DNA of 64,000 bases from an uncultured Eubacteriales bacterium (GCA_900547975.1 URIX01000002.1:17879-81878); one strand, 5' to 3'; numbered from the stretch's first letter, positions 7,998 to 47,495 are shown. The notes: generated by a model from the letters alone, not told the origin. Numbers and translations: made by a program.

Positions 7998-8480
7998 TTA
8001 TAATTTCAGTACTGCAATCAATTCTTTCCCATCCATATCTCCTGTTTCCTCAAATCCGAAAGAATGGTACAGGTGTTTGGCAATATCATTTTCGGGTTCA
8101 TATGACAGCCAACAGTACTCTGCTTTACCACAAGGCGATGAGTTTATGAAATCTAACGCCAAACTAAGTGCTTCTTTTCCATATCCCATGTTTTGGAATT
8201 TTCTGTCTATCATAAATCGCCAAAGATTATAATTACCAGAGGCTATTTGGGGGGCATCTTCCCAATAATCGTCTTTGTCAAAACCTATCATCAAAAAACC
8301 AATGGGAGTATCATCCTCATATATTCCAAAGGGATAGGCATAGCCATTTCCTGTTATTGCTGTATATGCTTCAATAATACTTACATCATTACTTGCAACA
8401 AAACCTTCTTGTTCTTTCGCTACTTTTAATTCGAGAATATCCCACACATTCTTTCCGTTAATTCTCTCTAATCGTAACAT
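7998..8480 (-). CDS. GNAT family N-acetyltransferase (diamine/spermidine acetyltransferase-like)
   Basis: The RFMIDRKFQNMGYGKEAL acetyl-CoA binding motif (Q/RxxGxG/A) sits in a 160-aa protein. Confidence 0.8.
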   Translation of the reverse strand: MLRLERINGKNVWDILELKVAKEQEGFVASNDVSIIEAYTAITGNGYAYPFGIYEDDTPIGFLMIGFDKDDYWEDAPQIASGNYNLWRFMIDRKFQNMGYGKEALSLALDFINSSPCGKAEYCWLSYEPENDIAKHLYHSFGFEETGDMDGKELIAVLKL

Positions 8481-8576
8481 ACTTTGCTCCTCACAAAATT
8501 CTTATTTATCGTTGAGTCTATTATAGCACAAATTTCGCATTTTTTCAATACATTCGCCTACCGTATAACGAAAAAA

Positions 8577-8630
8577 CTTTCGTTCCGTAGCAATATCTAT
8601 CGTTCCGTTGATAGACCTTTCGTTCCGTAG
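8577..8630. promoter_or_regulatory. three direct repeats TCGTTCCGT at an exact 20-bp period upstream of the GNAT gene
   Basis: cttTCGTTCCGTag at 8577, ctaTCGTTCCGTtg at 8597, cttTCGTTCCGTag at 8617. Confidence 0.45.
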
Positions 8631-8697
8631 TTGTTTGCTGTAAAAAACAGAACCCTGCAAAAGTGCGGTTAAACATTCCGGCAAGTCATACAAAATT

Positions 8698-8845
8698 TAA
8701 TGAAATCCTGCTTTGCAGGATGAAATCTTAGGTGTGCAACCTCAGATGAAATCAAATCCGCCTCAATTAACCCCGTGTTAGAGGGATTTCATCACAAGGT
8801 GATTTCATCCACGAAGTGGATTTATTCCGACGAAGGCGGATTTAG
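8698..8845. repeat. array of GATGAAATC / GATTTCATC 9-mers interleaved with mini-hairpins
   Basis: (A/G)ATGAAATC occurs 3 times (8699-8753), then GATTTCATC 2 times (8785-8810) plus degenerate GATTTAT and GATTTAG. AAATCCGCC (8753-8761) pairs with GGCGGATTT (8835-8843). Confidence 0.7.
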
Positions 8846-8847
8846 TT

Positions 8848-8889
8848 AAAAAAGACTGCAATTTTGTATCAAAATTGCAGTCTTTTTTT
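8848..8889. terminator. bidirectional terminator
   Basis: AAAAAAGACTGCAATTTT-gtatc-AAAATTGCAGTCTTTTTTT. Confidence 0.75.
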
Positions 8890-9072
8890 GGTGCGGATGA
8901 CAGGACTTGTAGCGAGAGAAACGAGCGTAATAGCGATTGTTGCGCAGTATGCGCCAATCGTGTCAGCTGCACAAGTGCAGGTTGCAAACATTGTTTGCCG
9001 ACAATTGAAAAATTGTCGCAAGTCCGTTGCCGTAACAAAAAAAAGACGAACGAAGTCGTCTTTTGTTGCGTG
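8889..9072 (-). repeat. stand-alone inverted copy of the element that follows tRNA-Leu
   Basis: Reverse complement matches 10414-10590 with only a few substitutions. It ends in CAAGTCCTGTCATCCGCACCA (8909-8889), a tRNA-Leu 3' end copy with one mismatch. Confidence 0.9.
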
Positions 9073-31357: not shown

Positions 31358-32650
31358 ATGGAAAAACAAAAGCAAAAAATTGTTTTCTATTTCAGAAAAA
31401 ACGTTTTGGCAAAAGGCGATTTTGCTCTTTATTATTGCGTTGCGAACGAGATTGCGGAAAACTTCGACATCGACGTTTTTTGCGTAAACAACTCATACAA
31501 AGAGATTCAACAAGAGTATTTAGATTCAAAAATAAACTTCTGTGATTTGAACGAAAGCAACCTCAAAGACTTTGAAGGGGCATATTTCGTTACGGCTTAC
31601 AACCAGTTGTTTTTCTTGCTCGAAGAAATCGAGAGCATCAAATCCGCAAAAATACTTTTATTGTTTTTGCATCCACAAATCACAAATTGGATGAACAATC
31701 AGTTGCCGAAAAATGCGAATGTTAAAAGCATATATAAATTGTTGCGTGAAAAAAACGCTTACGGATTTATGGATTGCGCAAATTTGTTCGCACTCGAAAA
31801 GCGAACCAATATATGTTTTGAAAAACGTTATTTCCCAGTAGTCTTCGACGATAAACACGTTTCACAACACGTCGACGCTTGCGATGTCGTGTCCGATGAC
31901 GAAATAAATATCGGTTGGTTCGGACGGCTCGACGCGGACAAGATTTATTCTTTGCTCAACGTGCTGGACAATTTGCTTGAAGAAGGCATTTGTAACGTCA
32001 ACTTCCATTTGATCGGTGACGGAAACGCGAAAAAACTTATCAACGTAAACAAATACGCTCCCAATATAAAGATCGTGTTCAATTCGTTTATGTTCGGCGA
32101 GGAAAGGGATTCGTATTTAAGAAGCAACGTAGATATGGTAGTCGCAATGGGAATTTCCGCTTTGGACGTGGCGTTGTTGTCCATTCCGACCGTTATTCCG
32201 ATCGTATCTTCTCAAAGAATCAGAGATGATAAATTGGCGTATATTTTCGATGCGAACGATTATTGTTTGGGTTGGAACGTGACCGACGTTGACGCCGCAA
32301 CGAAGAAAACTTACGGCATTAAACAAATCATAGGCGATTTGCAATGCGGACGCAAGAAGGAATTGGGTGAAAAGTGCTACGATTATGTACAATCAACATT
32401 TAACGTTAAGGAACATTCGCTCGATTTGGTAAAGTTGATTACGTCAACGAATCTTACCGTTGTCGATTGCTTGGCAAACGCAACGATTGCAAATCAACTG
32501 CGCAAATTCCGCTTGTACAAACGTTTGCGCGGTGCAAACAGAGGTTACAACGATTATTTGTCTTTCCGTGTAAAATTGGCACGGTTCAAAGAAATGAAAT
32601 TCGCGAGCCAAGTGAAATTTGCATTGAATAAACTATTGAAAAAAGGATAA
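31358..32650 (+). CDS. hypothetical protein, paralogue of the N-terminal half of the next gene (possible GT-B-like glycosyltransferase)
   Basis: Shares the order KIVFY/FF...INIG.FG...H.IG...AMGISALD/AYGENAISAAKFG.P.VIP with residues 1-400 of 32655..35129. Confidence 0.5.
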   Translation: MEKQKQKIVFYFRKNVLAKGDFALYYCVANEIAENFDIDVFCVNNSYKEIQQEYLDSKINFCDLNESNLKDFEGAYFVTAYNQLFFLLEEIESIKSAKILLLFLHPQITNWMNNQLPKNANVKSIYKLLREKNAYGFMDCANLFALEKRTNICFEKRYFPVVFDDKHVSQHVDACDVVSDDEINIGWFGRLDADKIYSLLNVLDNLLEEGICNVNFHLIGDGNAKKLINVNKYAPNIKIVFNSFMFGEERDSYLRSNVDMVVAMGISALDVALLSIPTVIPIVSSQRIRDDKLAYIFDANDYCLGWNVTDVDAATKKTYGIKQIIGDLQCGRKKELGEKCYDYVQSTFNVKEHSLDLVKLITSTNLTVVDCLANATIANQLRKFRLYKRLRGANRGYNDYLSFRVKLARFKEMKFASQVKFALNKLLKKG

Positions 32651-32654
32651 CGAA

Positions 32655-35129
32655 ATGAGTAAAATAGTCTTTTTTATTGAAACTAACGCCCCGATAACAG
32701 ACGCGCAGCGAGTTATTCTTAACCTTGCCGTTTCGGCGTATAAAGACGGTCAGGACATTGTGTTTTTGAACAATTATCAGTTGGAAGAAGCTGATTTGTC
32801 CGAAGACGCAAAACAAATATTCGAATTGACGAGCGAGGTCGATTTTTCGAAATATGAAGGGGCTGTCTTCTTTACGCCGTGCAACTATATGTTGCATTTA
32901 CTTGCTCATATTTCGTGCCTTAATGACGCGAAAATTTGCTTGTATTCTTACGATAAACGATCTATCGACTGGCTTATCAGTCACTTTGCGGACGGTAGAT
33001 GCGTAACGAACATAAAAAATTTGCTGATAAATACAAACGCCCTTTCTTTCAGAGGCGGAAACTGCGTGTTTGCAAATTACGATTCTGATGGCAGAGAAGT
33101 GCTTTATATTCCGCCGTTTATTGACGAGAGCATTGAGTTCCAACCCCAAAGCGTCGTAAACGAAAACGTAATAAATATAGGCGTTTTCGGTCCGTTCGGC
33201 GCGGCTGTGGCGAATATGCTCACAAACCTTATTCGCAACATGCGAGTGCAAAAAATCGATAAACTGGTGAAAATCCATATCATTGGCAAAACGAGCGAAA
33301 TGTTCAACGGAAAGTTTTCCGATTGCTCGACAAACTATACGAATATGATATACACCGGCGAGATGGCCGAAGAAGACTATGCGCAGTATATAAAGAAAAA
33401 CGTAGATATTATACTTGCATATGGCGAAAATGCGATATCTGCGGCAAAGTTCGGCGTGCCCGTCGTTATTCCCGTAATCGATGCAAAACCGTTCGAGGGC
33501 AACAGATACGTTTATTTGTTCAATGCGGAAAATCACGTTTTCGGTTGGAATTTTGCCGAGTCAGTCAAACTTGACGACGATTGCGTGACGTTCAAAACCG
33601 TTCTTAACGACATTTACGAAAAAGGGCTCAAACAAGAGCGTGCAAAACAATGCTTCGAGTTTGTCGTTGCCAACGCATCAAAAGCATATGCACTCGATTC
33701 TTTGTATAAGCAGATTGAACAAAGCCAACTTACATTGTCTGATTGCTTGGACAACGTTTATATTACCAAAAGACTCAAACAGTATTTTGCAAGTACGGCA
33801 AAAAGTTTCGGCGAGTTTATAGCCGTCAAAGCAAAGCCCGTTGAAAATGCGAAAACACCGAAGAAATCCGTCAAAAAGGCTATTTTGGACAATGCTCGCG
33901 TTTTCATCAAAAAACGCAAATTTTTTGAACTCCAAGCTGGATACGTCAAAAAAGTTTCGCAGATCATTGCAAAAAAGGATAAAAACGGAAAGATAAAGGT
34001 TGCATTTATCGTCGTTTTCAAGAGCGTTTTCCCAACGCGTCCGATATTTGAAAAAATGTGCGCAGATCCTAATTTCGATCCGTATATTGTGGTTGCGCCG
34101 AACGTTGGAAGAACGATGAAATATCAGCGCGATCTTTATAACGATACGTTCGAAGGACTCAAAGAGGAATACGGAGATAGAGTTATCGGGGGATATGATA
34201 TTGCAAACGATAAGTATTATGAACTAAAAGACGAATATAGCGTCATTTTCTTCTGCAATCCGTACAAGCATTTGGTGCATCCTTATCACGAAATCGAGTA
34301 TTTCCTCGACAAACCCGTTTTGCCGATTTATTCGAGTTACGGATTCGCCGCGTTGAGTTTTTGGGACGAAGTCATCGCAACGGATTTCTATAACTATTTG
34401 TGGAAAGCGTGCGTAGAAACGCCGTCAAATCTCAAACATTTGCAACAAGTTCAAACCATAAAGGGTAAGAACGGCGTTGTTACGGGATATATCAAGGCGG
34501 ACGGACTTGCGAATGTCGTACCAACGCCGAGAGATAGAAAACGTATTTTGATTTGCCCGCATCATACGGTATGGGGGTGGAAAACTCTCAATATTTCCAA
34601 TTTCCTGACATATTGCGATTTGTTTGTCGAATTGCCGAAGATGTATCCCGATATCGATTTCGTGTTTAGGCCGCATCCGCTTTTGATGGATAATCTGAAA
34701 GCACACAAAGTTTGGACTCAACAGCAAATAGACGACTATCTCGCAAGAATGCTTGAAAGTCCGAATATTACCTACGACACGTCGGGTGACTATTATCAAC
34801 AATTTGTCGATAGCGACGCAATGATTCACGATTGCGGTTCGTTTATTGGCGAGTATCTCTATACGGAAAAGCCATGTTGCTATATGATCAAGTCGGAAGA
34901 AGAAACTTATAAAGGGCTTGTTCCGCTCGGTCAGCAATGTATGGATCAGTACTATCACGCTAAGTCGAAAGAAGATATAATCAACTTCATAGAGAACGTC
35001 GTTATAAAAGGCAACGATCCGATGAAAGCGCAAAGAGAGGCGTTTGTGAAAAACGAACTTAAAGCAAATTATCCTCACGCGGCCGATACGATGATAAATA
35101 TGATTAAAAAGGAACTTAAAATAAAATGA
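32655..35129 (+). CDS. two-domain protein: uncharacterised N-terminal domain plus CDP-glycerol/ribitol glycerophosphotransferase (TagB/TagF family) C-terminal domain
   Basis: The C-terminal half carries FVFRPHPL...IHDCGSFIGEYLYTEKPCCYM, typical of the TagF family. 824 aa. Confidence 0.75.
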   Translation: MSKIVFFIETNAPITDAQRVILNLAVSAYKDGQDIVFLNNYQLEEADLSEDAKQIFELTSEVDFSKYEGAVFFTPCNYMLHLLAHISCLNDAKICLYSYDKRSIDWLISHFADGRCVTNIKNLLINTNALSFRGGNCVFANYDSDGREVLYIPPFIDESIEFQPQSVVNENVINIGVFGPFGAAVANMLTNLIRNMRVQKIDKLVKIHIIGKTSEMFNGKFSDCSTNYTNMIYTGEMAEEDYAQYIKKNVDIILAYGENAISAAKFGVPVVIPVIDAKPFEGNRYVYLFNAENHVFGWNFAESVKLDDDCVTFKTVLNDIYEKGLKQERAKQCFEFVVANASKAYALDSLYKQIEQSQLTLSDCLDNVYITKRLKQYFASTAKSFGEFIAVKAKPVENAKTPKKSVKKAILDNARVFIKKRKFFELQAGYVKKVSQIIAKKDKNGKIKVAFIVVFKSVFPTRPIFEKMCADPNFDPYIVVAPNVGRTMKYQRDLYNDTFEGLKEEYGDRVIGGYDIANDKYYELKDEYSVIFFCNPYKHLVHPYHEIEYFLDKPVLPIYSSYGFAALSFWDEVIATDFYNYLWKACVETPSNLKHLQQVQTIKGKNGVVTGYIKADGLANVVPTPRDRKRILICPHHTVWGWKTLNISNFLTYCDLFVELPKMYPDIDFVFRPHPLLMDNLKAHKVWTQQQIDDYLARMLESPNITYDTSGDYYQQFVDSDAMIHDCGSFIGEYLYTEKPCCYMIKSEEETYKGLVPLGQQCMDQYYHAKSKEDIINFIENVVIKGNDPMKAQREAFVKNELKANYPHAADTMINMIKKELKIK

Positions 35130-38099: not shown

Positions 38100-38245
38100 T
38101 TGTCTGTTAGACTTGCCATACTCAAAGGCTTCAACCAATACTTCTCGGAAGAGTTGGCGCAGAAAGTGAAAATGGGCATGAGAGAAACAAGCCTTAAATG
38201 CTTGTATCAAGGCGGTGGTTTGCCGTACGGATATAACGAGGTCTT
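38100..38245 (+). pseudogene. large serine recombinase fragment (internal piece only)
   Basis: LAILKGFNQYFSEELAQKVKMGMRETSLK..GGGLPYGY parallels ILEGFNQYFSEELTQKVNRGLRESWLK of the opposite-strand pseudogene that it abuts. Confidence 0.6.
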
Positions 38246-39075
38246 CTATAAATTGCTTTTGTATCGGTTTTTTTGTTGCAGGCTATATTCTTTCGTGTTC
38301 TGGACAGGCAGGAATAGTAGTAGTGTATATCGCCTGTCATAGTCGTTCCGCTTATTCCGACCATTTTGTGCTTACAATCTCCGCAAATAAGTTTGCCGGA
38401 TAGGATGTAATCGTAAATCTCTTTCTTGCGACTAGGCGCACGCTTATTCTCTTTATGTACGGCGCAGACCTTTGCCCATAACTCGTCCGATATGAGTTTC
38501 GGAAATATGTTATCGTATTTCGTACCTTGACGTTCCACGACTCCGTTGTATTTTGTATTGCGCAAAACGTGATATATCAACGATACTCGTATTGGTTGTC
38601 CGTCACGATTTCTATATCCGCATTCTTTGAAATGCTTTTCTATTGCGTTTGCGGTATAGCCTTGTGCGCACTTGGTGAACATCTCGACGACGAGCGGCGC
38701 TTCTATGGGGTGGGGAACGTATTTTTTATCTATAATATCGTATCCGAAAACGCTGTGTCCGCCCGTTGCGTTGCCTTTGAGCCAACTTTCCCGAAGTCCG
38801 CGATTCACCTTTTGTGTGAGTTCTTCCGAGAAGTATTGGTTGAATCCTTCGAGTATCGTTTCCATCATTCGTCCTTCGGGTGTATCCGTAATGCGTTCCA
38901 TTGCGGACAAAAGTGCAACTCCGTTGTCTTGCAACGTCTTTTTATTGATAACGGATTCAACTTTATTTCTCACAAATCTGTCCAACTTGTAAACGATGAC
39001 GTAAACGTGAGCGAATAAACAAACAAGAACATCGTTGTGCGCACTTTGGACAAGTGTGAAATCGTGAGCGAACAC
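38194..39075 (-). pseudogene. large serine recombinase lacking the N-terminal catalytic Ser region and the C-terminus
   Basis: Starts inside the resolvase domain (VYKLDRFVRN), continues through the recombinase domain and zinc ribbon (LICGDCKHKM...YYYSCLSR...IACNKK), then degenerates. Confidence 0.7.
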
Positions 39076-39694: not shown

Positions 39695-40126
39695 ATGACT
39701 AAAACCCAAGAAGAAATTACGCGAAACATGCGTAGCAATAAATGCAGAGATACAAAACCGGAGTTATTGTTGCGCAGCGAACTATGGAAACGCGGATTAC
39801 GATATAGGAAAAACTATAAAAAATTAGTCGGAAAACCCGATATCGTATTTGTAGGAAAGAAAATCGCGATTTTCGTAGACGGAAAAATGTGGCACGGATA
39901 CGACTGGGAAAATCAGAAAAACGATTTCAAATCGCATCGAGATTTTTGGATTCCGAAAATAGAACGCAACATCGCTCGTGACAAGTTCGTAAATCAACAA
40001 TTGGAAAACGACGGGTGGACTGTGCTGAGATTTTGGGATTTCGAAATAAAAAAACACCTTTCGGATTGTGCAGATAAAATAGAAAACATATACAACGAAA
40101 AAAAGATCATCGGAACGGAGATATAA
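39695..40126 (+). CDS. vsr: very short patch repair endonuclease (Vsr)
   Basis: TKPELLLRSELWKRGLRYRKN...GKPDIVFVGKKIAIFVDGKMWHG...WTVLRFWDFEI. Confidence 0.88.
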   Translation: MTKTQEEITRNMRSNKCRDTKPELLLRSELWKRGLRYRKNYKKLVGKPDIVFVGKKIAIFVDGKMWHGYDWENQKNDFKSHRDFWIPKIERNIARDKFVNQQLENDGWTVLRFWDFEIKKHLSDCADKIENIYNEKKIIGTEI

Positions 40127-40127
40127 G

Positions 40128-41135
40128 ATGTTAAAAAGTATTGATTTATTCGCAGGTATCGGCGGCATTCGGCTCGGGTTCGAAAATGCCTTCGGCGACG
40201 AATTGAAAACGGTATTCGTCAGCGAATGGGACGAATACGCTCAAAAAACTTATAAGGCGAATTTCCACGACGATTTCGAAATCGCCGGCGATATAACGAA
40301 GATAAAGGAAACGGATATTCCCGACTTCGATATATGTCTTGCGGGATTCCCTTGTCAGGCATTCAGTTTGGCAGGACAGCGCAAGGGCTTTAAAGACGAT
40401 TATAAAGGAATGTCTCGCGGCACGTTATTTTTCGACGTGGCGAGAATTTGCGCCGAGAAAAAACCGAAAGTAATTTTCTGCGAAAACGTAAAAGGTTTGA
40501 CGATACACGACAAAGGAAGAACATTCGAAATTATTACCGAAACACTCAAAGAAATCGGTTATACTCCGTTCGAACAAATATTAAACAGCCGTAATTTCGG
40601 CGTTCCGCAAAACAGAGAACGCATTTATATCGTTGCATTCAGAAACGATATAGCCCCGAAAGAATTTATCTTCCCCGCGAAAACCGACGATACGAAACGT
40701 ATTCGCGATATTATGGAAGAAAATCCCGTTCCCGCGAAATATTATCTCAGCACCTGCTATATGGACACTCTTATCAGACATAAAGAACGTCACGCGGCGA
40801 AAGGACACGGTTTCGGATATGAAATTCGAGATCTCGACGACGTTTCGGGCGCAATTGTATGCGGCGGTATGGGCAGAGAAAGAAATTTGATTATAGATAA
40901 AAGACAGACGAATTTAACGCCTACTACCCACATTAAGGGTGAAATCAATAAAGACGGCATTCGCAAAATGACTCCGAGAGAATGGGCAAGACTGCAAGGG
41001 TTTCCGGACGATTACAAATTCGTTTTGGCGGACGTTCATCTTTACAAGCAATTCGGAAACAGCGTAACCGTTCCCGTAATACAAGCAATAGCGGAAAAAA
41101 TCAAAGAGGTACTCGATAAAAATGGCAGAGATTAA
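40128..41135 (+). CDS. DNA (cytosine-5)-methyltransferase, copy 1
   Basis: Motif I DLFAGIGG, IV GFPCQAFS, VI ENVKGL, X QFGNSVTVPV. Confidence 0.92.
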   Translation: MLKSIDLFAGIGGIRLGFENAFGDELKTVFVSEWDEYAQKTYKANFHDDFEIAGDITKIKETDIPDFDICLAGFPCQAFSLAGQRKGFKDDYKGMSRGTLFFDVARICAEKKPKVIFCENVKGLTIHDKGRTFEIITETLKEIGYTPFEQILNSRNFGVPQNRERIYIVAFRNDIAPKEFIFPAKTDDTKRIRDIMEENPVPAKYYLSTCYMDTLIRHKERHAAKGHGFGYEIRDLDDVSGAIVCGGMGRERNLIIDKRQTNLTPTTHIKGEINKDGIRKMTPREWARLQGFPDDYKFVLADVHLYKQFGNSVTVPVIQAIAEKIKEVLDKNGRD

Positions 41136-42288
41136 AGGGAAAAATAAGGGCGAATGGTCCGAAATGTACATTTTCTTCAAATTAATGTCCGATAGAAAAG
41201 TTTACGTCGCGGACAAAGATATGAATAAACTGAAAGACGTATTCTTAAATATCGTCAGTATTATTCGTGAAGAAGTTGCGGGTAAAGAATATCGTTATTT
41301 TACGGGCGATAAAGTGGTTATCACGCTTAACGGCGAAACCGTAATGACTTTGGATTCTTCATTGTTTACGGAAAAAGCCGCACGCGTTTGGAAAATGATA
41401 ACCGAAAATAAGGGCAATACTACTTTTACCGACGACGAAATCAGAGAATTTCTCGAGTCGATTTTCATTCACAATATATCGGCTCCCGCACAAAAGAAAA
41501 ACGATTATTTCGGCGGCACGAAAGATATCGTTCTCGATACGATAGATTATCGCTCCGGCGTAAGTCAAATAATGGGCTTTTCCTGTAAATCGGATATCGA
41601 TGCCGCATCGACGCTATTCAATGCAAGCGGAGATAATACTAATTTCGAGTACGAACTGGTCGGAAATATAAACGACGATGTAATGAACGAATTTAATTCG
41701 TTATTTAACGAAGTGATCCGGAAAGGCGTAGTTTGTCACGACGTGGCAACCGGCAGCCGTATGAATTATTTGAAGTCCTGTGGCATCGATGTAAAATTCG
41801 TAAATCCCGTAAAGGAAACCGCAAGACAAAATTTGATACGTTGCGGCGGTTTGGAAACTCCTGCCATTGTTGCGGAGATGTTGAAATATTACTACTACGA
41901 CAAATCGGGAGCGGATACATCTCTCGATGAAGCGATTAAACATCTTGCCGAATCCGATCCCGCAGGGTATTCTTTCGGCGAGTTATACGATACATATCAT
42001 CTGAAAATAGCAAATCTTTTGTATTCCATGTTCACGGGCTTGCGTTTTTCAAAACCGTGGAACGGCAAATCCGATGTGAGCGGCGGATATATCGTTGTTA
42101 AACGCGACGGCGACGTCGTTGCTTTCCACTCCTGCATTGCCGACGAATTCAAGGATTTTCTTGTGGACAAATTAAAGTTCGAAGCACCGTCTTGCAGTCG
42201 TCACGATTATATGTCGATTTATAAAAAAGACGACGGCAAATACTATCTGAAATTTGCCCTGCAATTCAGATTTAAATTGAAAAAATAA
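41122..42288 (+). CDS. type II restriction endonuclease, HpaII-family-like (tentative)
   Basis: N-terminus KGKNKGEWSEMYIFFKLMSDRKVYV resembles what I recall of HpaII-family enzymes. It overlaps the upstream methyltransferase by 14 nt and sits in a vsr-M-R arrangement. Confidence 0.55.
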   Translation: MAEIKGKNKGEWSEMYIFFKLMSDRKVYVADKDMNKLKDVFLNIVSIIREEVAGKEYRYFTGDKVVITLNGETVMTLDSSLFTEKAARVWKMITENKGNTTFTDDEIREFLESIFIHNISAPAQKKNDYFGGTKDIVLDTIDYRSGVSQIMGFSCKSDIDAASTLFNASGDNTNFEYELVGNINDDVMNEFNSLFNEVIRKGVVCHDVATGSRMNYLKSCGIDVKFVNPVKETARQNLIRCGGLETPAIVAEMLKYYYYDKSGADTSLDEAIKHLAESDPAGYSFGELYDTYHLKIANLLYSMFTGLRFSKPWNGKSDVSGGYIVVKRDGDVVAFHSCIADEFKDFLVDKLKFEAPSCSRHDYMSIYKKDDGKYYLKFALQFRFKLKK

Positions 42289-43223
42289 TGAGAGTATGCA
42301 GTTTGTTTTGCGGAATCGGCGGAATAGACCTTGCCTTTACGCAAGCCGGGCATGAAATCGTATGGGCTAACGATATCGATAAATATGCCTGCATGACCTA
42401 TCGGCACAATTTCCCCGAGTCGGTTTTGATCGAAGGCGATATTCGCGCGATCGATAAACACGATATCCCCGATTTCGATATACTTGCGGCAGGGTTTCCT
42501 TGCCAACCGTTTTCGGTTTGCGGAAAACAAAAAGGCTTTTCGGACGAACGCGGAAATTTATTCTTCGAAATCGGAAAAGTAATCGATGCGAAACATCCGT
42601 CTATCGTGTTTTTAGAGAATGTGGCAAATCTTATCGAACACGACCACGGTAAAACGTTCAACGTTATTCATAACGAACTTGCGTGGCGCGGATATTTTAT
42701 TCGCTACCTGATTGCAGATGCTTGCGATTACGGCATTCCGCAACACAGAATGAGAACCTATATCGTCGCATTTTCGGACAGAACCGCCTGCGAAAATTTT
42801 ACGTTTCCGGAAAAAGTTCTGCTCGAAAAACGAATAACAGATATTATCGACGTAACCGTAAAAGCTGACGACAAATATTACTATTCACCCGTTTCTGCAA
42901 AGTATCAACGTTTAAGTCGATATATTACCGACGAAAAGCAGTTGTATCGATTTGCGGATTACGGTGTCCAATCGGGCAAAGACGGCATATCGTTTACGCT
43001 CAAAGCGAATATGGGAACGTATTACGACCGAGTGCCGATTATAAAGGATAATTTCGGCATACGAAATATCACGTTGACGGAATGCCTTGCTTTACAAGGT
43101 TTCCCGAAAAGCTTCTCTTTTCCTCTTGCCGTTCCAGAGAGAGAACAATACAAACAAACTGGAAATACTGTGTGCGTAGGAATAATAGAAAAAATAATTA
43201 GGTGTATTACAAAAGATGAATAA
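42288..43223 (+). CDS. DNA (cytosine-5)-methyltransferase, copy 2
   Basis: SLFCGIGG, GFPCQPFS, ENVANL, QTGNTVCV. The start overlaps the upstream stop (TAATG). Confidence 0.9.
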   Translation: MRVCSLFCGIGGIDLAFTQAGHEIVWANDIDKYACMTYRHNFPESVLIEGDIRAIDKHDIPDFDILAAGFPCQPFSVCGKQKGFSDERGNLFFEIGKVIDAKHPSIVFLENVANLIEHDHGKTFNVIHNELAWRGYFIRYLIADACDYGIPQHRMRTYIVAFSDRTACENFTFPEKVLLEKRITDIIDVTVKADDKYYYSPVSAKYQRLSRYITDEKQLYRFADYGVQSGKDGISFTLKANMGTYYDRVPIIKDNFGIRNITLTECLALQGFPKSFSFPLAVPEREQYKQTGNTVCVGIIEKIIRCITKDE

Positions 43224-43788
43224 AATATTTAAATTGCCGACAAAATCCGACTTAAAGAGTCGTACATCTACTATCAGTAATGCTTTTGCAATAGCTATTA
43301 CTCCGTATATTTATCCTTCATTAAATGAAATTGAACACTTTTTAAAGGAATTACATCTTGAACAAGGACAATGTGCATATTGTTTAGGCAAAGCAAACGC
43401 AATGGATCATGTAAAACCTTTAGTTACAGGTGGACTACCAACCGGATATATTACTGAAATTCGAAATTTAGTTCCTTGCTGTTCAGCTTGTAACAGTGCA
43501 AAAGGTGCACAGGATTTTAGAGCTTGGTACAAAAGCGAAAAAAATATTAAGCGATTGCACTCTGAGGGATTAACTGATACTGAAATTAATGAGCGTTTTG
43601 ATATCGTTTCACGATATATTGATAAAATTCCTGCGCCAATTGATTACAAAACAATACTTGGCGATAACTTGTGGAATGAATTTCTACATAGAAAAGAAGA
43701 AATGGTGCGTCTTCTAAAAGAAGATCAATTGTTTTGCGATGAATTAAGTGCTATAATTAAAAACAAAATCGATTCGGAGAATAATTGA
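43216..43788 (+). CDS. HNH endonuclease (candidate restriction partner of methyltransferase 2)
   Basis: CAYCLGKANAMDHVKPLVTGG...NLVPCCSACNSAKG. 8-nt overlap with the upstream gene. Confidence 0.8.
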   Translation: MNKIFKLPTKSDLKSRTSTISNAFAIAITPYIYPSLNEIEHFLKELHLEQGQCAYCLGKANAMDHVKPLVTGGLPTGYITEIRNLVPCCSACNSAKGAQDFRAWYKSEKNIKRLHSEGLTDTEINERFDIVSRYIDKIPAPIDYKTILGDNLWNEFLHRKEEMVRLLKEDQLFCDELSAIIKNKIDSENN

Positions 43789-43789
43789 T

Positions 43790-44851
43790 ATGCCTTTTGA
43801 AGTAATAGATTTGTTTTGCGGAGTCGGAGGGCTTACATGCGGAATGCGACAGGCAGGCTTTCGTGTTGTAGCCGGATTCGACAATGATCAAACATGTGAA
43901 TATACATATAGCCACAATAATCATACGGAATTCCATTGTAGAAATATCAAAGAAGTAACAGGAGCGGAAATAAACGGTTGTTATTCGTCCGGTGCTCAGA
44001 AAATCCTTGTAGGTTGCGCGCCATGTCAACCGTTCTCGACAATGAGCTATAAGCGTTTTATTGCATCACCAAGAGAAAATGATATGAAATATGATTTATT
44101 ATCGGAATTCGGAAGACTAATAAAGGACGTTCAGCCTGTCATTGTTGCTATGGAAAACGTGCCCGAGTTAAGGAATACAGGTGTTTTTCAAAGCTTTTTA
44201 GAAACTTTGAGAGATAACGGATATTTTACCGACGGCGGTCGTGTTGTATATTGCCCCGATTATGGCATTCCGCAAAACAGGCACAGATTTATTCTATTAG
44301 CATCAAGAATCGGAGAGATTACACTTCTCCCTCCTACTCACAAGCGAAAAGAAGTAACGGTTCGTCCGTTTATTGAAAAATTACCTCCCATTGCAGCCGG
44401 AGAAATGTATGAATTCGATAAACTCCACCGCACGGCAAGTCTTTCCGAAATAAATCTAAAACGTATTAAAGCGTCTGTTCCCGGTGGAACTTGGAAAGAT
44501 TGGCCCGAAGAATTAAGATGCGCTTGTCACAAAAAAGATTCGGGACAAACATATACGTCTGTTTACGGTAGGATGTCTTGGGATAAAATCGGACCGACTA
44601 TGACAACACAGTTTTTCTGTTACGGCACAGGACGATACGGTCATCCGGAACAAGATAGAGCTCTATCCTTACGCGAAGGAGCTTTGTTGCAAACGTTTCC
44701 CCGAGATTACGAATTCTTCCCGCCAGACGTCACTGATTATTGCATGAGAGACGTGGCACGGCACATAGGGAATGCTGTTCCTGTTCGCTTGGGCGAAATC
44801 ATAGGATGCTCAATAAATAAACATTTAGAAAAATATACGGAGGTGCACTAA
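43790..44851 (+). CDS. DNA (cytosine-5)-methyltransferase, copy 3
   Basis: DLFCGVGG, GCAPCQPFS, MENVPEL, HIGNAVPV. Confidence 0.9.
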   Translation: MPFEVIDLFCGVGGLTCGMRQAGFRVVAGFDNDQTCEYTYSHNNHTEFHCRNIKEVTGAEINGCYSSGAQKILVGCAPCQPFSTMSYKRFIASPRENDMKYDLLSEFGRLIKDVQPVIVAMENVPELRNTGVFQSFLETLRDNGYFTDGGRVVYCPDYGIPQNRHRFILLASRIGEITLLPPTHKRKEVTVRPFIEKLPPIAAGEMYEFDKLHRTASLSEINLKRIKASVPGGTWKDWPEELRCACHKKDSGQTYTSVYGRMSWDKIGPTMTTQFFCYGTGRYGHPEQDRALSLREGALLQTFPRDYEFFPPDVTDYCMRDVARHIGNAVPVRLGEIIGCSINKHLEKYTEVH

Positions 44852-46737
44852 TGCCAATAGACTTTAAATTAAAAGTTAGTCCGAGAATGCTTGAATTGCT
44901 CAGTAAAGATTTGTATACAAATATGTATTTCGTATTGGCTGAGTTAATCGCCAATTCATATGATGCAGATGCTGAAAATGTATATGTGTATATTGATGAT
45001 GATGAAATACGGGTAGAAGATGATGGTAACGGTATGAGCCCGGACAATCTAAACGATAAGTATTTATTGGTTGGCGGGGAATCCAGAAATTCCGAAGATA
45101 ATGCACGCACATCTAGGAAGAATCGTTTAAAAATGGGAAGGAAAGGAGTTGGTAAATTGTCGGCGCTTTCTATTTCAAACGGTTTTAAACTAGTTACTGT
45201 TTGTGATGGATATACCATTGGATTGTTTATTCCGAATCGTATAGAACATGATGATGAATCGTTAAGAGTTTTGAGCCAAAACGAGTTTTCATTAAAAAGA
45301 ATTACGAATCATGGAACGGCTGTTATAATGGAGTCGCCGAAGGTGGCAATTCCGAAGCTACAAGATACTGTATTAAAGAATCTTGCAAAAATATTTCCAA
45401 ATGATATAGAAGATTTTAAAATACATGTTGTGTTTAAAGGCGAAGAGAAGATTTTGATTCCCGATGAGAAAGACGTGATTATGCGGTTGGCTTCGTTTAT
45501 TTCTATAGGGGACGAAAAAAGATATTTGGCTGAATCGTTGCCAACAAATGAGAAAAATTTACAAAAGGATCATTTGGATGCTTATGAAGAAACTATAGAA
45601 ATGTATGATAGTAACAATGTGCTTAAAGAAATTACGGTGCGCATATATGGCTGGATTGGTACTTACAAAACTACTCGCGGGATGAAGAGGGAAATTAATG
45701 AGTTTTCAGACAACTATTTGGCAATTTTCGCACACAATAAAATGGGATTGCGAAATATATTACCAATAATCGGAAAAAACCGTGTTTATGAGAGTTATAT
45801 TGTTGGGAATTTGTATATAGATGCCTTTGAAGCTGCTAATTTCCCAGACATGGCAGGAACAAACCGTCAAGGTTATAATGAAAACGATCCCAGGTGGATT
45901 ACAGCATTAAAATATATAAGAGAAATAACGGATAGAATTGTAAAACTGCATGAACAGTTTGCCATTGCCGAGAAAATTGAAAAAGACACGGAAAAAGAAG
46001 CGAAAAAAGAAGCCGATGAGTTAGCTTTGAAAGAACGTCTTGACCGCGCTACCAAAAATATAACAGAAAATATAGCGCGTAAAATAAATGATAATACGTC
46101 TCCTGAACAGATCAAGCAAGCGGTTTCATCGGAAATTGAAGCCATGAAACCCATTCTCGGATTTAAGTCTATAGTGGATGCGAATAAAAAGAAAATAATG
46201 ATAAGCCAAACATGGAAAGATAAAATTGTATCCGATGTAATTTATCAAATGCTTCTATTTAATGGCGTACCCAAAGAGGACATCATATATTCAAATGGAC
46301 CCGATCCGGAAACGAACTTACCTGAACGAGATATTTATGGTTATCTACAGAAATTCTTTATTCACAGTGCATCCACCGAAATGATATATGTGCTGTTTGT
46401 AACAAGTAAGAATGTTTTGAATGTTGAAGAAGATAACCCTTCTGCGAGTTGGGGCGTTTTAATGGAAATAGGTGCGGCATGGGTTACGAAAAAAGATCAC
46501 TGGATTTTTAATATAGACAATTTCAAGCCCGAGCAGCCGCTTAATATTGAAGATAAATGGGTCGCAATTTATACGATAGATGATGAAGCTGGAAACAAAA
46601 TTTTATCTCTAACAGAGGCTATGGCAAATAGCTTTTGCAATAAAATAATTGCAACCTGTTCCGCATGCGGATATACCGCAAAAGCTTTTGAGAATAATAA
46701 AAAGTATTTGGTAGATAACTTTGTAGCGATTTGTTAA
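44851..46737 (+). CDS. GHKL (HATPase_c_3 / MORC-like) ATPase with coiled-coil linker and TIR-like C-terminal domain
   Basis: Bergerat-fold motifs ELIANSYDA, DDGNGM, GRKGVGKLS. Lys/Glu-rich helix at about residues 370-420. C-terminus has KIMISQTWKDK...IIYSN...VLFVTSKN...SASWGVLMEIGAAW. The start overlaps the methyltransferase 3 stop (TAATG). Confidence 0.75.
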   Translation: MPIDFKLKVSPRMLELLSKDLYTNMYFVLAELIANSYDADAENVYVYIDDDEIRVEDDGNGMSPDNLNDKYLLVGGESRNSEDNARTSRKNRLKMGRKGVGKLSALSISNGFKLVTVCDGYTIGLFIPNRIEHDDESLRVLSQNEFSLKRITNHGTAVIMESPKVAIPKLQDTVLKNLAKIFPNDIEDFKIHVVFKGEEKILIPDEKDVIMRLASFISIGDEKRYLAESLPTNEKNLQKDHLDAYEETIEMYDSNNVLKEITVRIYGWIGTYKTTRGMKREINEFSDNYLAIFAHNKMGLRNILPIIGKNRVYESYIVGNLYIDAFEAANFPDMAGTNRQGYNENDPRWITALKYIREITDRIVKLHEQFAIAEKIEKDTEKEAKKEADELALKERLDRATKNITENIARKINDNTSPEQIKQAVSSEIEAMKPILGFKSIVDANKKKIMISQTWKDKIVSDVIYQMLLFNGVPKEDIIYSNGPDPETNLPERDIYGYLQKFFIHSASTEMIYVLFVTSKNVLNVEEDNPSASWGVLMEIGAAWVTKKDHWIFNIDNFKPEQPLNIEDKWVAIYTIDDEAGNKILSLTEAMANSFCNKIIATCSACGYTAKAFENNKKYLVDNFVAIC

Positions 46738-46820: not shown

Positions 46821-47495
46821 TCATTCATAAATTGCGGCATATCGTTGTCGCATTTTGATGAAGTATTCAAACACGGTGGATTGCGCTCGCTCGAGTATGG
46901 CGGCGATTTCGGGATAACTCAGTCCGTTTTGCCTACATTCGAGCGCAATTCTCATATTGTCCGTCAAATTGAGGCTGTCAACGATTGAATCATAGACGGT
47001 ATAGTCTTTGACAACATCTTCTTCAATCTCGCAAGACGGTTCACTTACGGGTGTTAAAGCGTCAAGGCTCACGGAGCGGTAGTAATCGCTTGTTTTTCGT
47101 GTGATAAGTTTAGACATTGATCTAATGCACGCAATCTTGACCGTTATTGCCTTGCCCTTTTTATCGTATGCCAAAACGTCGTTTAATTGCTTTCCGTAAT
47201 GATTACAAAGGAATAGCGCGCCTTCTTGCACTAAATCATAACTGTCGCTGAAAGTGTGGTTAATATCTTTTTTACGTTTTATATCAACGCATAGGTCTGC
47301 ATATATCTTTTGCATTTTGGCTCCCATATATCCGATGAGGAATCGTGTTTCATACATCGCCAACTGTTCTGCCATTGCAAGAACGTTGTTATGAGAGATT
47401 GTTTCTTTGAAAACGTCATAATTTTCAATATGTTTTTTCATTTTGGAATGCGCTCCGAGTTTTATTTGCCTTTCGGCAACAAGACGGCGCAGCAT
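46821..47495 (-). CDS. sigma-70 region-4-type HTH protein (mobile-element sigma/regulator-like)
   Basis: C-terminal LTDNMRIALECRQNGLSYPEIAAILERAQSTVFEYFIKMRQR is a sigma region-4 / LuxR-type HTH. 224 aa. Confidence 0.5.
   Translation of the reverse strand: MLRRLVAERQIKLGAHSKMKKHIENYDVFKETISHNNVLAMAEQLAMYETRFLIGYMGAKMQKIYADLCVDIKRKKDINHTFSDSYDLVQEGALFLCNHYGKQLNDVLAYDKKGKAITVKIACIRSMSKLITRKTSDYYRSVSLDALTPVSEPSCEIEEDVVKDYTVYDSIVDSLNLTDNMRIALECRQNGLSYPEIAAILERAQSTVFEYFIKMRQRYAAIYE

Follow-up and report, generated by a model that had tools for sequence, protein, structure and literature searches.

What does a protein do that joins a GHKL ATPase to a TIR-like domain and is encoded immediately behind a DNA methyltransferase? 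The question is raised by a gene in a 64,000-nucleotide stretch of DNA from an uncultured Eubacteriales bacterium (GCA_900547975.1, URIX01000002.1:17879-81878; the whole stretch is called the window here, and positions are counted from its first letter). An initial annotation, made by motif reading, had placed there a MORC-like GHKL ATPase fused to a TIR-like C-terminal domain and coupled to a C5-methyltransferase (M3), as a candidate undescribed defence effector. The open reading frame (ORF), termed GHKL-TIR in the following, occupies exactly 44851-46737, with LAELIANSYDA, VEDDGNGM, MGRKGVGKLS and KKIMISQTWKDK...MIYVLFVTSKN...SASWGVLMEIGAAW all present. We see an even chance that M3 and GHKL-TIR form a module, derived from a restriction-modification (RM) system of the BbrUII/HgiDII kind, which serves abortive infection or addiction through an effector that destroys nicotinamide adenine dinucleotide (NAD+), an NADase. 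By analogy, the response of GHKL-TIR is probably the death of the infected cell and not the cleavage of foreign DNA, because a TIR domain of the NAD-destroying type replaces the nuclease and the pairing with a methyltransferase is constant. The two genes and the parts of the protein are the following:

43790..44851, + strand: M3, C5-cytosine DNA methyltransferase, cognate partner of the GHKL-TIR gene (Pfam DNA_methylase, E 2e-55; TIGR00675 dcm)
44839..44843, + strand: GGAGG ribosome-binding site, 7 nt upstream of the GHKL-TIR ATG and within the end of M3 (direct sequence reading)
44851..46737, + strand: GHKL-TIR ORF, ATG start, 628 aa plus stop
44923..45264, + strand: GHKL (Bergerat-fold) ATPase domain, residues 25-138 (Pfam HATPase_c_3, E 2.3e-19, 70 bits against a 25-bit cutoff)
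45343..45888, + strand: transducer (S5-like) middle domain, residues ~165-346, with K297 and a DMAGTNRQG motif (Foldseek, NF050001, conservation)
45889..46146, + strand: long charged helix or coiled coil, residues 347-432, which joins the ATPase module to the TIR domain (predicted structure)
46186..46734, + strand: SpbK-type TIR domain, residues 446-628 (PADLOC, PDB phmmer and profile searches, Foldseek)
46465..46467, + strand: codon of E539, predicted catalytic glutamate of the TIR domain and equivalent of SpbK E192 (SpbK alignment)

The TIR-like character of the C-terminus, until then a matter of motif reading, was confirmed as that of an SpbK-type TIR domain with a predicted flavodoxin-like beta-alpha fold, since three independent lines, a PADLOC hidden Markov model (HMM), searches of PDB sequences and Foldseek, agree on SpbK. 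The PADLOC spbK model matches residues 361-596 (E 1.2e-13), phmmer against all PDB sequences gave SpbK (9phb) as the sole credible match (E 5.7e-7), and a 25-sequence profile of the TIR domain searched against PDB retrieved SpbK 9phb as its sole match (E 4.2e-10). A separate model of the domain (m74c9adc22f65, predicted template modelling score (pTM) 0.81) found the SpbK TIR as top Foldseek match (E 7.6e-7, probability 1.0, template modelling (TM) score 0.64), the TIR domains of TIR-STING and SPARTA/TIR-APAZ being the only other matches of high probability. The TIR domain became visible to Foldseek after this separate modelling, as the search with the whole protein had given GHKL proteins only. 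Recognizable TIR elements are the strands betaA (448-452) and betaC (512-518) and the helix alphaC (534-546), which are followed by extra C-terminal helices.

The glutamate flagged early on at the position of the TIR NADase catalytic residue is E539, which lies within helix alphaC, is invariant in 59/59 homologues and aligns with E192 of SpbK, which by its place in the TIR domain would be the catalytic residue. SpbK is an experimentally proven NADase that makes ADP-ribose (ADPR) and N1-cyclic ADPR (N1-cADPR) and needs two-stranded head-to-tail TIR assemblies for its activity; E192 is among its modelled NAD-site residues, while N191, G194 and W197 build the strand-strand interface (PMC12847820). 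SpbK E192, G194 and W197 correspond to E539, G541 and W544, each present in 59/59 homologues across many phyla, and D457 and P491 (59/59), L499 (58/59) and W534 (57/59) are conserved to a similar degree; E492, the equivalent of SpbK D158, is acidic in 49/59. Judged by this alignment the surfaces for TIR self-association, the BB loop and the alphaC Gly/Trp pair, are present, and by analogy to SpbK the chemistry of GHKL-TIR would be that of an NADase.

The effector is preceded by a complete Bergerat ATP-binding fold, as had been proposed and as the HATPase_c_3 match and the conservation of all GHKL motifs bear out. Motif I comprises E31/N35, motif II D57-G59-G61, motif III G96-G99-G101-K102 and motif IV G155-T156; E31, N35, D57, G59, G61, G96, G99, G101 and G155 are kept in 57-58 of the 59 homologues, the exceptions being gaps or single substitutions. 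Both hallmarks of the GHKL superfamily are found, namely the ATP/Mg2+ motifs I-IV and, behind them, a transducer/S5 domain with a conserved basic residue. This residue, K297, is invariant (59/59) and the candidate, by sequence, for the transducer finger residue, while residues 201-280 are the most variable stretch of the protein. With the whole model, residues ~1-440 align over ~390-450 columns with GyrB 43K, MORC2/3 and the N and M domains of Hsp90 (target-normalised TM scores of ~0.42-0.47). The charged coiled-coil region likewise noted at the outset is predicted as a long helix at 347-411 followed by a second one at 418-432 (model m0acfcf68700f), and its linker sequence is poorly conserved.

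The ancestry of this ATPase core points to restriction enzymes. The best NCBIfam match of GHKL-TIR is NF050001, the "BbrUII/HgiDII family restriction enzyme" (E 8e-60, 203 bits against a cutoff of 550 bits), which covers profile positions 1-403 of 659 only, on residues 5-417, and the PADLOC Type II restriction endonuclease (REase) models likewise match the N-terminal part alone. The protein falls short of full-length membership of this equivalog family (550 bits), yet shares with it the position directly downstream of a cognate C5-methyltransferase. As a control, a bona fide member on a Rhizobium plasmid (L012) reaches 830 bits over NF050001 positions 2-659; its C-terminal ~320 aa, aligned with six relatives, show the invariant residues D194, E208 and K210 (D...ExK). 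For this BbrUII-type C-terminus Pfam offers a weak PDDEXK_2 match (E 0.03), a PDB profile search gave no meaningful match, and the C-terminus of R.HgiDII has been left without assignment (Orlowski and Bujnicki, 2008; PMC2441816), while D194/E208/K210 together with the account of paraMORC3 by Iyer et al. hint weakly at a PD-(D/E)XK-like domain. That the TIR-like domain is a diverged form of this C-terminus was ruled out (hhalign probability 0.3%), and an hmmsearch of L012, L088, L087 and L011 with the TIR profile gave no match.

By sequence comparison, then, the N-terminal ~400 aa of GHKL-TIR are the core of a BbrUII/HgiDII enzyme in which the C-terminal D...ExK module of the family is replaced by an unrelated TIR domain. 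The two kinds of protein are alike in this homologous N-terminal part and in having the gene immediately behind that of an orthologous Dcm, the stop codon of the one overlapping the start codon of the other, and unlike in that profile positions 404-659, the invariant D...ExK domain, are missing from GHKL-TIR. On the plasmid pBM153 of Paracoccus tegillarcae (L010:3983-5641) a 552-aa GHKL core protein stands behind the same Dcm orthologue, and its C-terminal ~200 aa gave no match to the TIR domain, the D...ExK module or any Pfam family; with this protein the scaffold has a third variant of effector. As TIR, D...ExK and the third Paracoccus C-terminus all occur, the GHKL core bears interchangeable C-terminal modules.

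The very position of the TIR domain, exactly that of the D...ExK module in enzymes served by the same methylase orthogroup, together with the PADLOC Type II REase matches to the N-terminal part, speaks for a true restriction enzyme, in which the TIR would be a nuclease or DNA-processing domain and M3 with GHKL-TIR an ordinary Type II RM system, modulated by ATP, for the cleavage of unmethylated DNA. Among plant TIR domains some process nucleic acids. A nuclease role was proposed for such proteins by Iyer et al. in 2008 (PMC2292703). We nevertheless consider this improbable. The nearest characterised relative, SpbK, is an NADase, the invariant residues are the NADase glutamate and the TIR-TIR interface, and a metal-binding nuclease motif is not evident. 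We know of no bacterial TIR nuclease. No nuclease domain was found in the 628-aa protein by Pfam, NCBIfam, PADLOC, PDB or Foldseek, and GHKL-TIR does not classify as a Type II restriction subunit.

The same comparisons narrow the name of the protein and its claim to novelty. Of the label "MORC-like GHKL" the second word stands and the first does not hold in the strict sense, as phmmer matches to MORC3/4 in PDB are at E 0.39-0.5 and Foldseek ranks Hsp90, GyrB and MORC about equally; since the MORC-specific similarity is weak and the best NCBIfam match is BbrUII/HgiDII, a paraMORC-type GHKL protein with a BbrUII/HgiDII core is the better description. "Undescribed" was too strong, as the combination of GHKL, S5 and TIR had been reported, without experiments, as paraMORC4 in RM contexts in 2008. 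In their computational study Iyer, Abhiman and Aravind (2008, Biol Direct 3:8; PMC2292703) defined the GHKL plus S5 families paraMORC1-5 in RM neighbourhoods, among them paraMORC3 with a C-terminal nuclease of the restriction endonuclease fold and an E-D-ExK motif, and paraMORC4, called infrequent, which ends in a TIR domain with a highly conserved Hx[ST]xD motif in the betaA-alphaA loop and for which a nuclease or ligand-binding role was put forward. The architecture is the same here, as are the RM neighbourhoods with cytosine methylases and Vsr, and by this architecture the GHKL-TIR family is likely paraMORC4. The corresponding loop only approximates the published motif: it reads S452-[Q39/H20]-T454-x-x-D457, in which the aspartate is invariant, histidine is in the minority and Ser/Thr stands one position earlier than in paraMORC4. 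The 2008 paper predates the NADase biology of TIR domains and reports neither a BbrUII/HgiDII core nor a shared methylase orthogroup nor an embedding in DISARM operons. New here are the SpbK-type NADase signature and the effector-swapped BbrUII/HgiDII core behind the same methylase orthogroup, as well as the strict two-gene module and its occurrence within DISARM operons, where one methylase partner is freely exchanged for another. A dedicated GHKL-TIR model exists neither in PADLOC v2 nor in Pfam or NCBIfam.

How constant is the methylase? Seventy-seven loci from species-representative genomes were surveyed, of which 61 have the full-length TIR architecture and three of these are cut at a contig end and uninformative. 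A DNA methyltransferase is linked in 58/58 informative loci (METHYLTRANSFERASE link strict): an M3 orthologue stands immediately upstream on the same strand in 38, is convergent just downstream in four and lies within 6 kb in two, while the remaining 14 have instead of Dcm, in the upstream position, DrmMI, the N6-adenine methylase of class 1 DISARM. The coupling to a methyltransferase proposed from the window alone is therefore strict, whereas its restriction to C5 enzymes does not hold, with Dcm in 44 and DrmMI in 14 loci. In the 44 Dcm-type loci the M3 orthologues are 43-67% identical to M3. Clustering of neighbouring ORFs gave Dcm as the sole conserved neighbour (44/47 loci; the next gene family occurs in six), and no conserved third gene, be it a nuclease, an effector or Vsr, was found within 5 kb in the 47 loci. 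The absence of any other conserved neighbour marks a two-gene module without a separate nuclease or effector. This agrees with the early remark that no nuclease follows in the window, where the next gene, at 46821..47495, is convergent on the opposite strand with only weak Pfam matches to helix-turn-helix (HTH)/sigma-r4 domains.

The lack of a third gene bears on a further alternative, in which the TIR domain, like ThsB of Thoeris, would make a cyclic ADPR-type messenger that activates an effector encoded elsewhere, and would not itself deplete NAD+. Thoeris TIR domains act as such signal generators, and N1-cADPR is among the products of SpbK. Both the missing conserved partner within 5 kb of the 47 loci and the horizontal mobility of the gene across phyla including archaea, which argues against the need for an unlinked partner, make this a distant prospect. 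In the window PADLOC gave no Ths match, and with no conserved third gene the pairing of ThsB and ThsA that defines Thoeris is not found.

That a domain was swapped on a conserved RM scaffold is supported most strongly by the methylase orthogroup, which is common to the partner types. M3 is 46-53% identical to the methylases that precede TIR-type proteins in Listeria, Bacteroides and Gallionella, nuclease-type partners (the bona fide member of Rhizobium, L088-L090, Campylobacter; 46-52% for the nuclease type) and the third type in Paracoccus, while it shares just 25-32% identity with M1 and M2, the two other Dcm enzymes of the same window. As far as sequence can tell, one methylase orthogroup serves "R" partners with different effector domains. 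In the window M3 and GHKL-TIR are tied together closely: the start codon of the ATPase gene overlaps the stop codon of M3, as first described, by one base (TAATG at 44849-44853, in which the TAA stop and the ATG share the A), and this overlap with the GGAGG upstream suggests translational coupling. The best PADLOC match of M3 is the DrmMII model (PDLC02651, E 3e-90). In the study of the Serratia class 1 DISARM system DrmMII (5-methylcytosine (5mC) at MTCGAK) alone gives some phage protection.

In the 14 DISARM loci (L018, L020, L021, L025, L029, L030, L032, L033, L045, L055, L065, L068, L074 and L079), mostly of Pseudomonadota, the gene follows a ~1,230-1,470-aa methylase with MmeI/Eco57I-type domains, which is identified as DrmMI by PADLOC (~1,975 bits), and is followed by DrmA or DrmD (PADLOC E = 0); in most of them the GHKL-TIR start overlaps the DrmMI stop. 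L005 likewise has a GHKL-TIR gene behind drmMI. Two gene orders occur, DrmD-DrmMI-X-DrmA and DrmMI-X-DrmD-DrmA with X as GHKL-TIR, and the methylase is the constant neighbour in both. The described gene set of class 1 DISARM (DrmD, DrmMI, DrmA, DrmB, DrmC) is without GHKL-TIR; the Serratia system has six genes, none of the GHKL-TIR type, and its paper makes no mention of a GHKL or TIR gene. In the window operon itself Pfam and PADLOC detected no DISARM genes (DrmA/B/C, DrmD, DrmMI), and it does not class as DISARM. Where GHKL-TIR does reside in DISARM operons it could be an extra abortive layer and a confounder of genetic analysis.

GHKL-TIR proteins from DISARM loci do not branch apart from the Dcm-linked ones by neighbour joining but are interleaved with them, and the Dcm-linked L022 is 83% identical to the DrmMI-linked L018, with an identity profile along the sequence like that of pairs from the same context. 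No protein segment that co-varies with the methylase type was found along the GHKL-TIR sequence. The finding that ~80%-identical proteins switch partner without a divergent segment, and that a methylase of either class, Dcm or DrmMI, always directly precedes the gene, also inside DISARM operons with their two gene orders, would equally suit a guard, and the gene of the window closes an RM island with three methylases. In such a guard, latent GHKL-TIR would be bound to the methyltransferase or to a DISARM or RM complex, and phage anti-restriction proteins or methylase inhibitors would release the NADase, whereas the methylation status would not be read; a precedent is PrrC, an anticodon nuclease whose gene lies within the type I RM operon EcoprrI. 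We regard this as unlikely, though the least so of the alternatives, as 44 loci consist of Dcm and GHKL-TIR alone with no conserved restriction enzyme to protect, the core is common to real restriction enzymes with the same methylase orthogroup, which suggests an inherited DNA-directed activity, and it is not evident that binding Dcm and an unrelated 1,450-aa DrmMI equally well would be any easier than what the module model requires.

For the RM-derived module the following course can be envisaged, in which the NADase chemistry, what sets it off, the part played by methylation and the death of the cell are drawn from homology to SpbK and from the analogous systems SPARTA and VcSduA. The 'restriction' subunit would have kept its GHKL ATPase and transducer engine and exchanged its C-terminal PD-(D/E)XK-like nuclease for the SpbK-type TIR domain. 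Detection of foreign unmodified DNA would lead to ATP-dependent dimerisation and clamping of the GHKL module, most likely through, or jointly with, the co-translated methyltransferase, because ~80%-identical GHKL-TIR proteins work with either a 5mC Dcm or an N6-methyladenine (m6A) DrmMI. Clamping and clustering would join the TIR domains, by the symmetric alphaC interface and then head to tail, into composite active sites, upon which hydrolysis of NAD+ would stop the growth of the infected cell; loss of the module would be penalised as well (addiction). The linked methylase, by modifying host DNA, would keep the system off. Put more specifically as "restriction by suicide", a widespread RM-derived system of immunity and addiction, methylation would set self and non-self, the methyltransferase, 5mC Dcm or m6A DrmMI interchangeably, would be the self-marker and the target-recognition partner, and unmodified DNA would drive ATP-dependent assembly of the TIR NADase with no DNA cleavage; in this specific form the proposal is tentative, possible rather than probable.

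Several points weigh against these readings. Pfam, including its TIR models, does not match the C-terminal domain even with the threshold relaxed to E 1, the link to TIR domains runs to the SpbK subfamily only, and two NAD-site positions of SpbK differ, S122 corresponding to a variable residue and Y188 to glycine. The methylase partners of GHKL-TIR proteins that share 79-83% identity differ in chemistry and in specificity, and the partner switch without a divergent segment means that GHKL-TIR itself probably does not read one specific methyl mark. The step of methylation gating thereby rests on an assumed protein-protein partnership; the methylase may serve the protein in recognition or in regulation, or something other than methylation may be the trigger, and DISARM hosts may carry an unlinked Dcm. 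Suicide at every meeting with unmodified DNA is costly. HgiDII and BbrUII are GTCGAC enzymes, and the depletion of GTCGAC in the window (Markov observed/expected ratio (O/E) 0.47) is unspecific because many palindromes are depleted. No experimental study of a methylase with GHKL-TIR or TIR was found in the literature, with subscription journals mostly uncovered.

Among characterised systems SpbK (YddK, Bacillus subtilis ICEBs1; PDB 9phb) has the closest TIR domain by sequence and structure, with the catalytic glutamate and the alphaC Gly/Trp conserved, an extra C-terminal helix past the TIR core and a helical region before the TIR in both; it differs as a single gene for 266 aa, triggered by the phage portal protein YonE, without ATPase or methylase, and with ~26-35% identity over the aligned region. 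VcSduA of Vibrio cholerae (GHKL plus Shedu nuclease, paraMORC3, Shedu type I-D) is an experimentally shown defence that needs both its ATPase and its effector activity (PMC12137116). As in GHKL-TIR, an N-terminal GHKL ATPase controls a C-terminal effector within one polypeptide, but in VcSduA this effector is a DUF4263 PD-(D/E)xK nuclease, the gene stands alone without a methylase, and protection comes without killing of the host. SPARTA short prokaryotic Argonaute (pAgo) and TIR-STING (CBASS), which provide the next-best structural TIR matches, resemble the proposed course from a nucleic-acid or ligand sensor through oligomerisation of a TIR NADase to NAD+ depletion; their sensors are Argonaute-APAZ and STING, without an ATPase engine or a DNA methylation component.

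Full-length homologues, from 98% down to ~40% identity, occur in many phyla, and these together with the invariant catalytic positions exclude a chance ORF. The hosts comprise Bacillota, Bacteroidota, Pseudomonadota, Planctomycetota, Spirochaetota, Verrucomicrobiota, Actinomycetota, Patescibacteria and archaea. Public assemblies contain an identical protein, the closest relatives with a name are metagenome-assembled genomes of Oscillospiraceae, Ruminococcus and Pseudobutyrivibrio, and the samples are metagenomes of the human-gut type. In the sources the homologues are called no more than "ATP-binding protein" or "hypothetical protein", or are named after their HATPase domain. A search with the TIR profile gave 321 clusters at 50% identity, 50 of these at E <= 1e-30; the strong matches are GHKL fusions of ~615-650 aa or gene fragments, and short SpbK-like proteins appear at weaker E-values only. 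Nine distant GHKL relatives (L062, L067, L070, L073, L077, L080, L083, L085, L086; 25-37% identity, 579-708 aa), one of them from a Thermoplasmata archaeon, keep a diverged TIR-like domain (local hmmsearch E 3e-39 to 3e-5), by which the TIR-bearing branch is broader than the 61 full-length matches. Viral carriage is rare, with five IMG/VR contigs and no full-length GHKL-TIR copy in GenBank phages; a gene of Escherichia phage PhiR44_1 annotated 'ParaMORC3' (H32, 8065-9063) has the GHKL/transducer core in common (27% over residues 4-349) and no TIR, so that nuclease-type relatives do occur on phages.

In the window GHKL-TIR is the final gene of a same-strand run at 39695-46737 of closely spaced or overlapping genes, which adjoins a truncated serine recombinase on a low-GC island between polysaccharide-biosynthesis and housekeeping genes. 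Two further RM units lie directly upstream of M3 in the same run (39695-43788, +), and a terminator-like signal lies behind it:

39695-40126, + strand: Vsr
40128-41135, + strand: Dcm M1
41122-42288, + strand: HpaII-family REase
42288-43223, + strand: Dcm M2
43216..43788, + strand: HNH endonuclease, 190 aa, upstream of M3
46833..46852, + strand: terminator-like hairpin, weak evidence from a consensus scan only, ~100 nt past the GHKL-TIR stop and inside the convergent downstream gene

The HNH gene belongs to a separate Vsr-M1-HpaII-M2-HNH block, as indicated by the relatives L006-L009, in which an HNH_2 protein stands at the HNH position and all of the block has the opposite orientation. M3 and GHKL-TIR stay paired next to an inverted block in relatives that share 69% identity with the protein of the window. 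In L001-L004, with a GHKL-TIR 98% identical, an unrelated 308-aa ORF without Pfam match replaces the 190-aa HNH gene. The serine recombinase (38194-39075, -; 293 aa) looks N-terminally truncated, its Resolvase match beginning at profile position 66, and relatives at the same island border have 526-557 aa; it may be a decayed integrase that marks a fixed island. Further upstream, at 31358-35129 (+), two large ORFs (430 aa and 824 aa) without Pfam match lie inside a polysaccharide or teichoic-acid-like cluster with a DegT aminotransferase, two IspD/TarI-like cytidylyltransferases and a HAD phosphatase. Several short palindromes are strongly avoided over the whole window (Markov O/E for GGCC 0.14, CTCGAG 0.14, CTAG 0.28, GATC 0.30, CATG 0.37, AGCT 0.43 and CCGG 0.45, with GCGC and TCGA at ~1.0), which fits long-term pressure from several RM systems; these statistics give no specific pointer to the target site of M3.

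The Vsr in the island, and MutL as one of the proteins that combine GHKL and S5, raise the thought of a non-defence role in which GHKL-TIR would act in housekeeping repair or epigenetic control at 5mC sites, MutL/Vsr-like, with the TIR domain as an oligomerisation scaffold only. This is very improbable, considering the patchy, horizontally transferred distribution on islands with recombinases and RM or DISARM genes, the invariance of the catalytic glutamate and the fact that Vsr is no conserved neighbour.

If the RM-derived module is as proposed, one methylase-plus-GHKL scaffold carries either a nuclease or a TIR NADase, a natural experiment in which the effector is swapped and the sensor kept, and a methylation-gated form of abortive infection would be added where RM, with direct cleavage, and abortive infection, with suicide, count as separate strategies. 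Should the suicide reading be true, a single domain swap would form a direct evolutionary bridge from restriction enzymes to abortive infection, and certain DISARM systems would contain a hidden further layer. In part of the class 1 DISARM operons an unrecognised seventh gene is present, a possible confounder in their genetic dissection. As the N-terminal part fits the Type II REase models of PADLOC and "ATP-binding protein" is all that the protein is called, such pairs risk being misread as ordinary Type II RM systems. Barriers to transformation in gut Clostridia, Bacteroidales and others might then include a lethal response, which would be relevant to protocols that mimic host methylation. 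Because the family spans numerous bacterial phyla and extends to some archaea, experiments on one member would provide the annotation of many genes.

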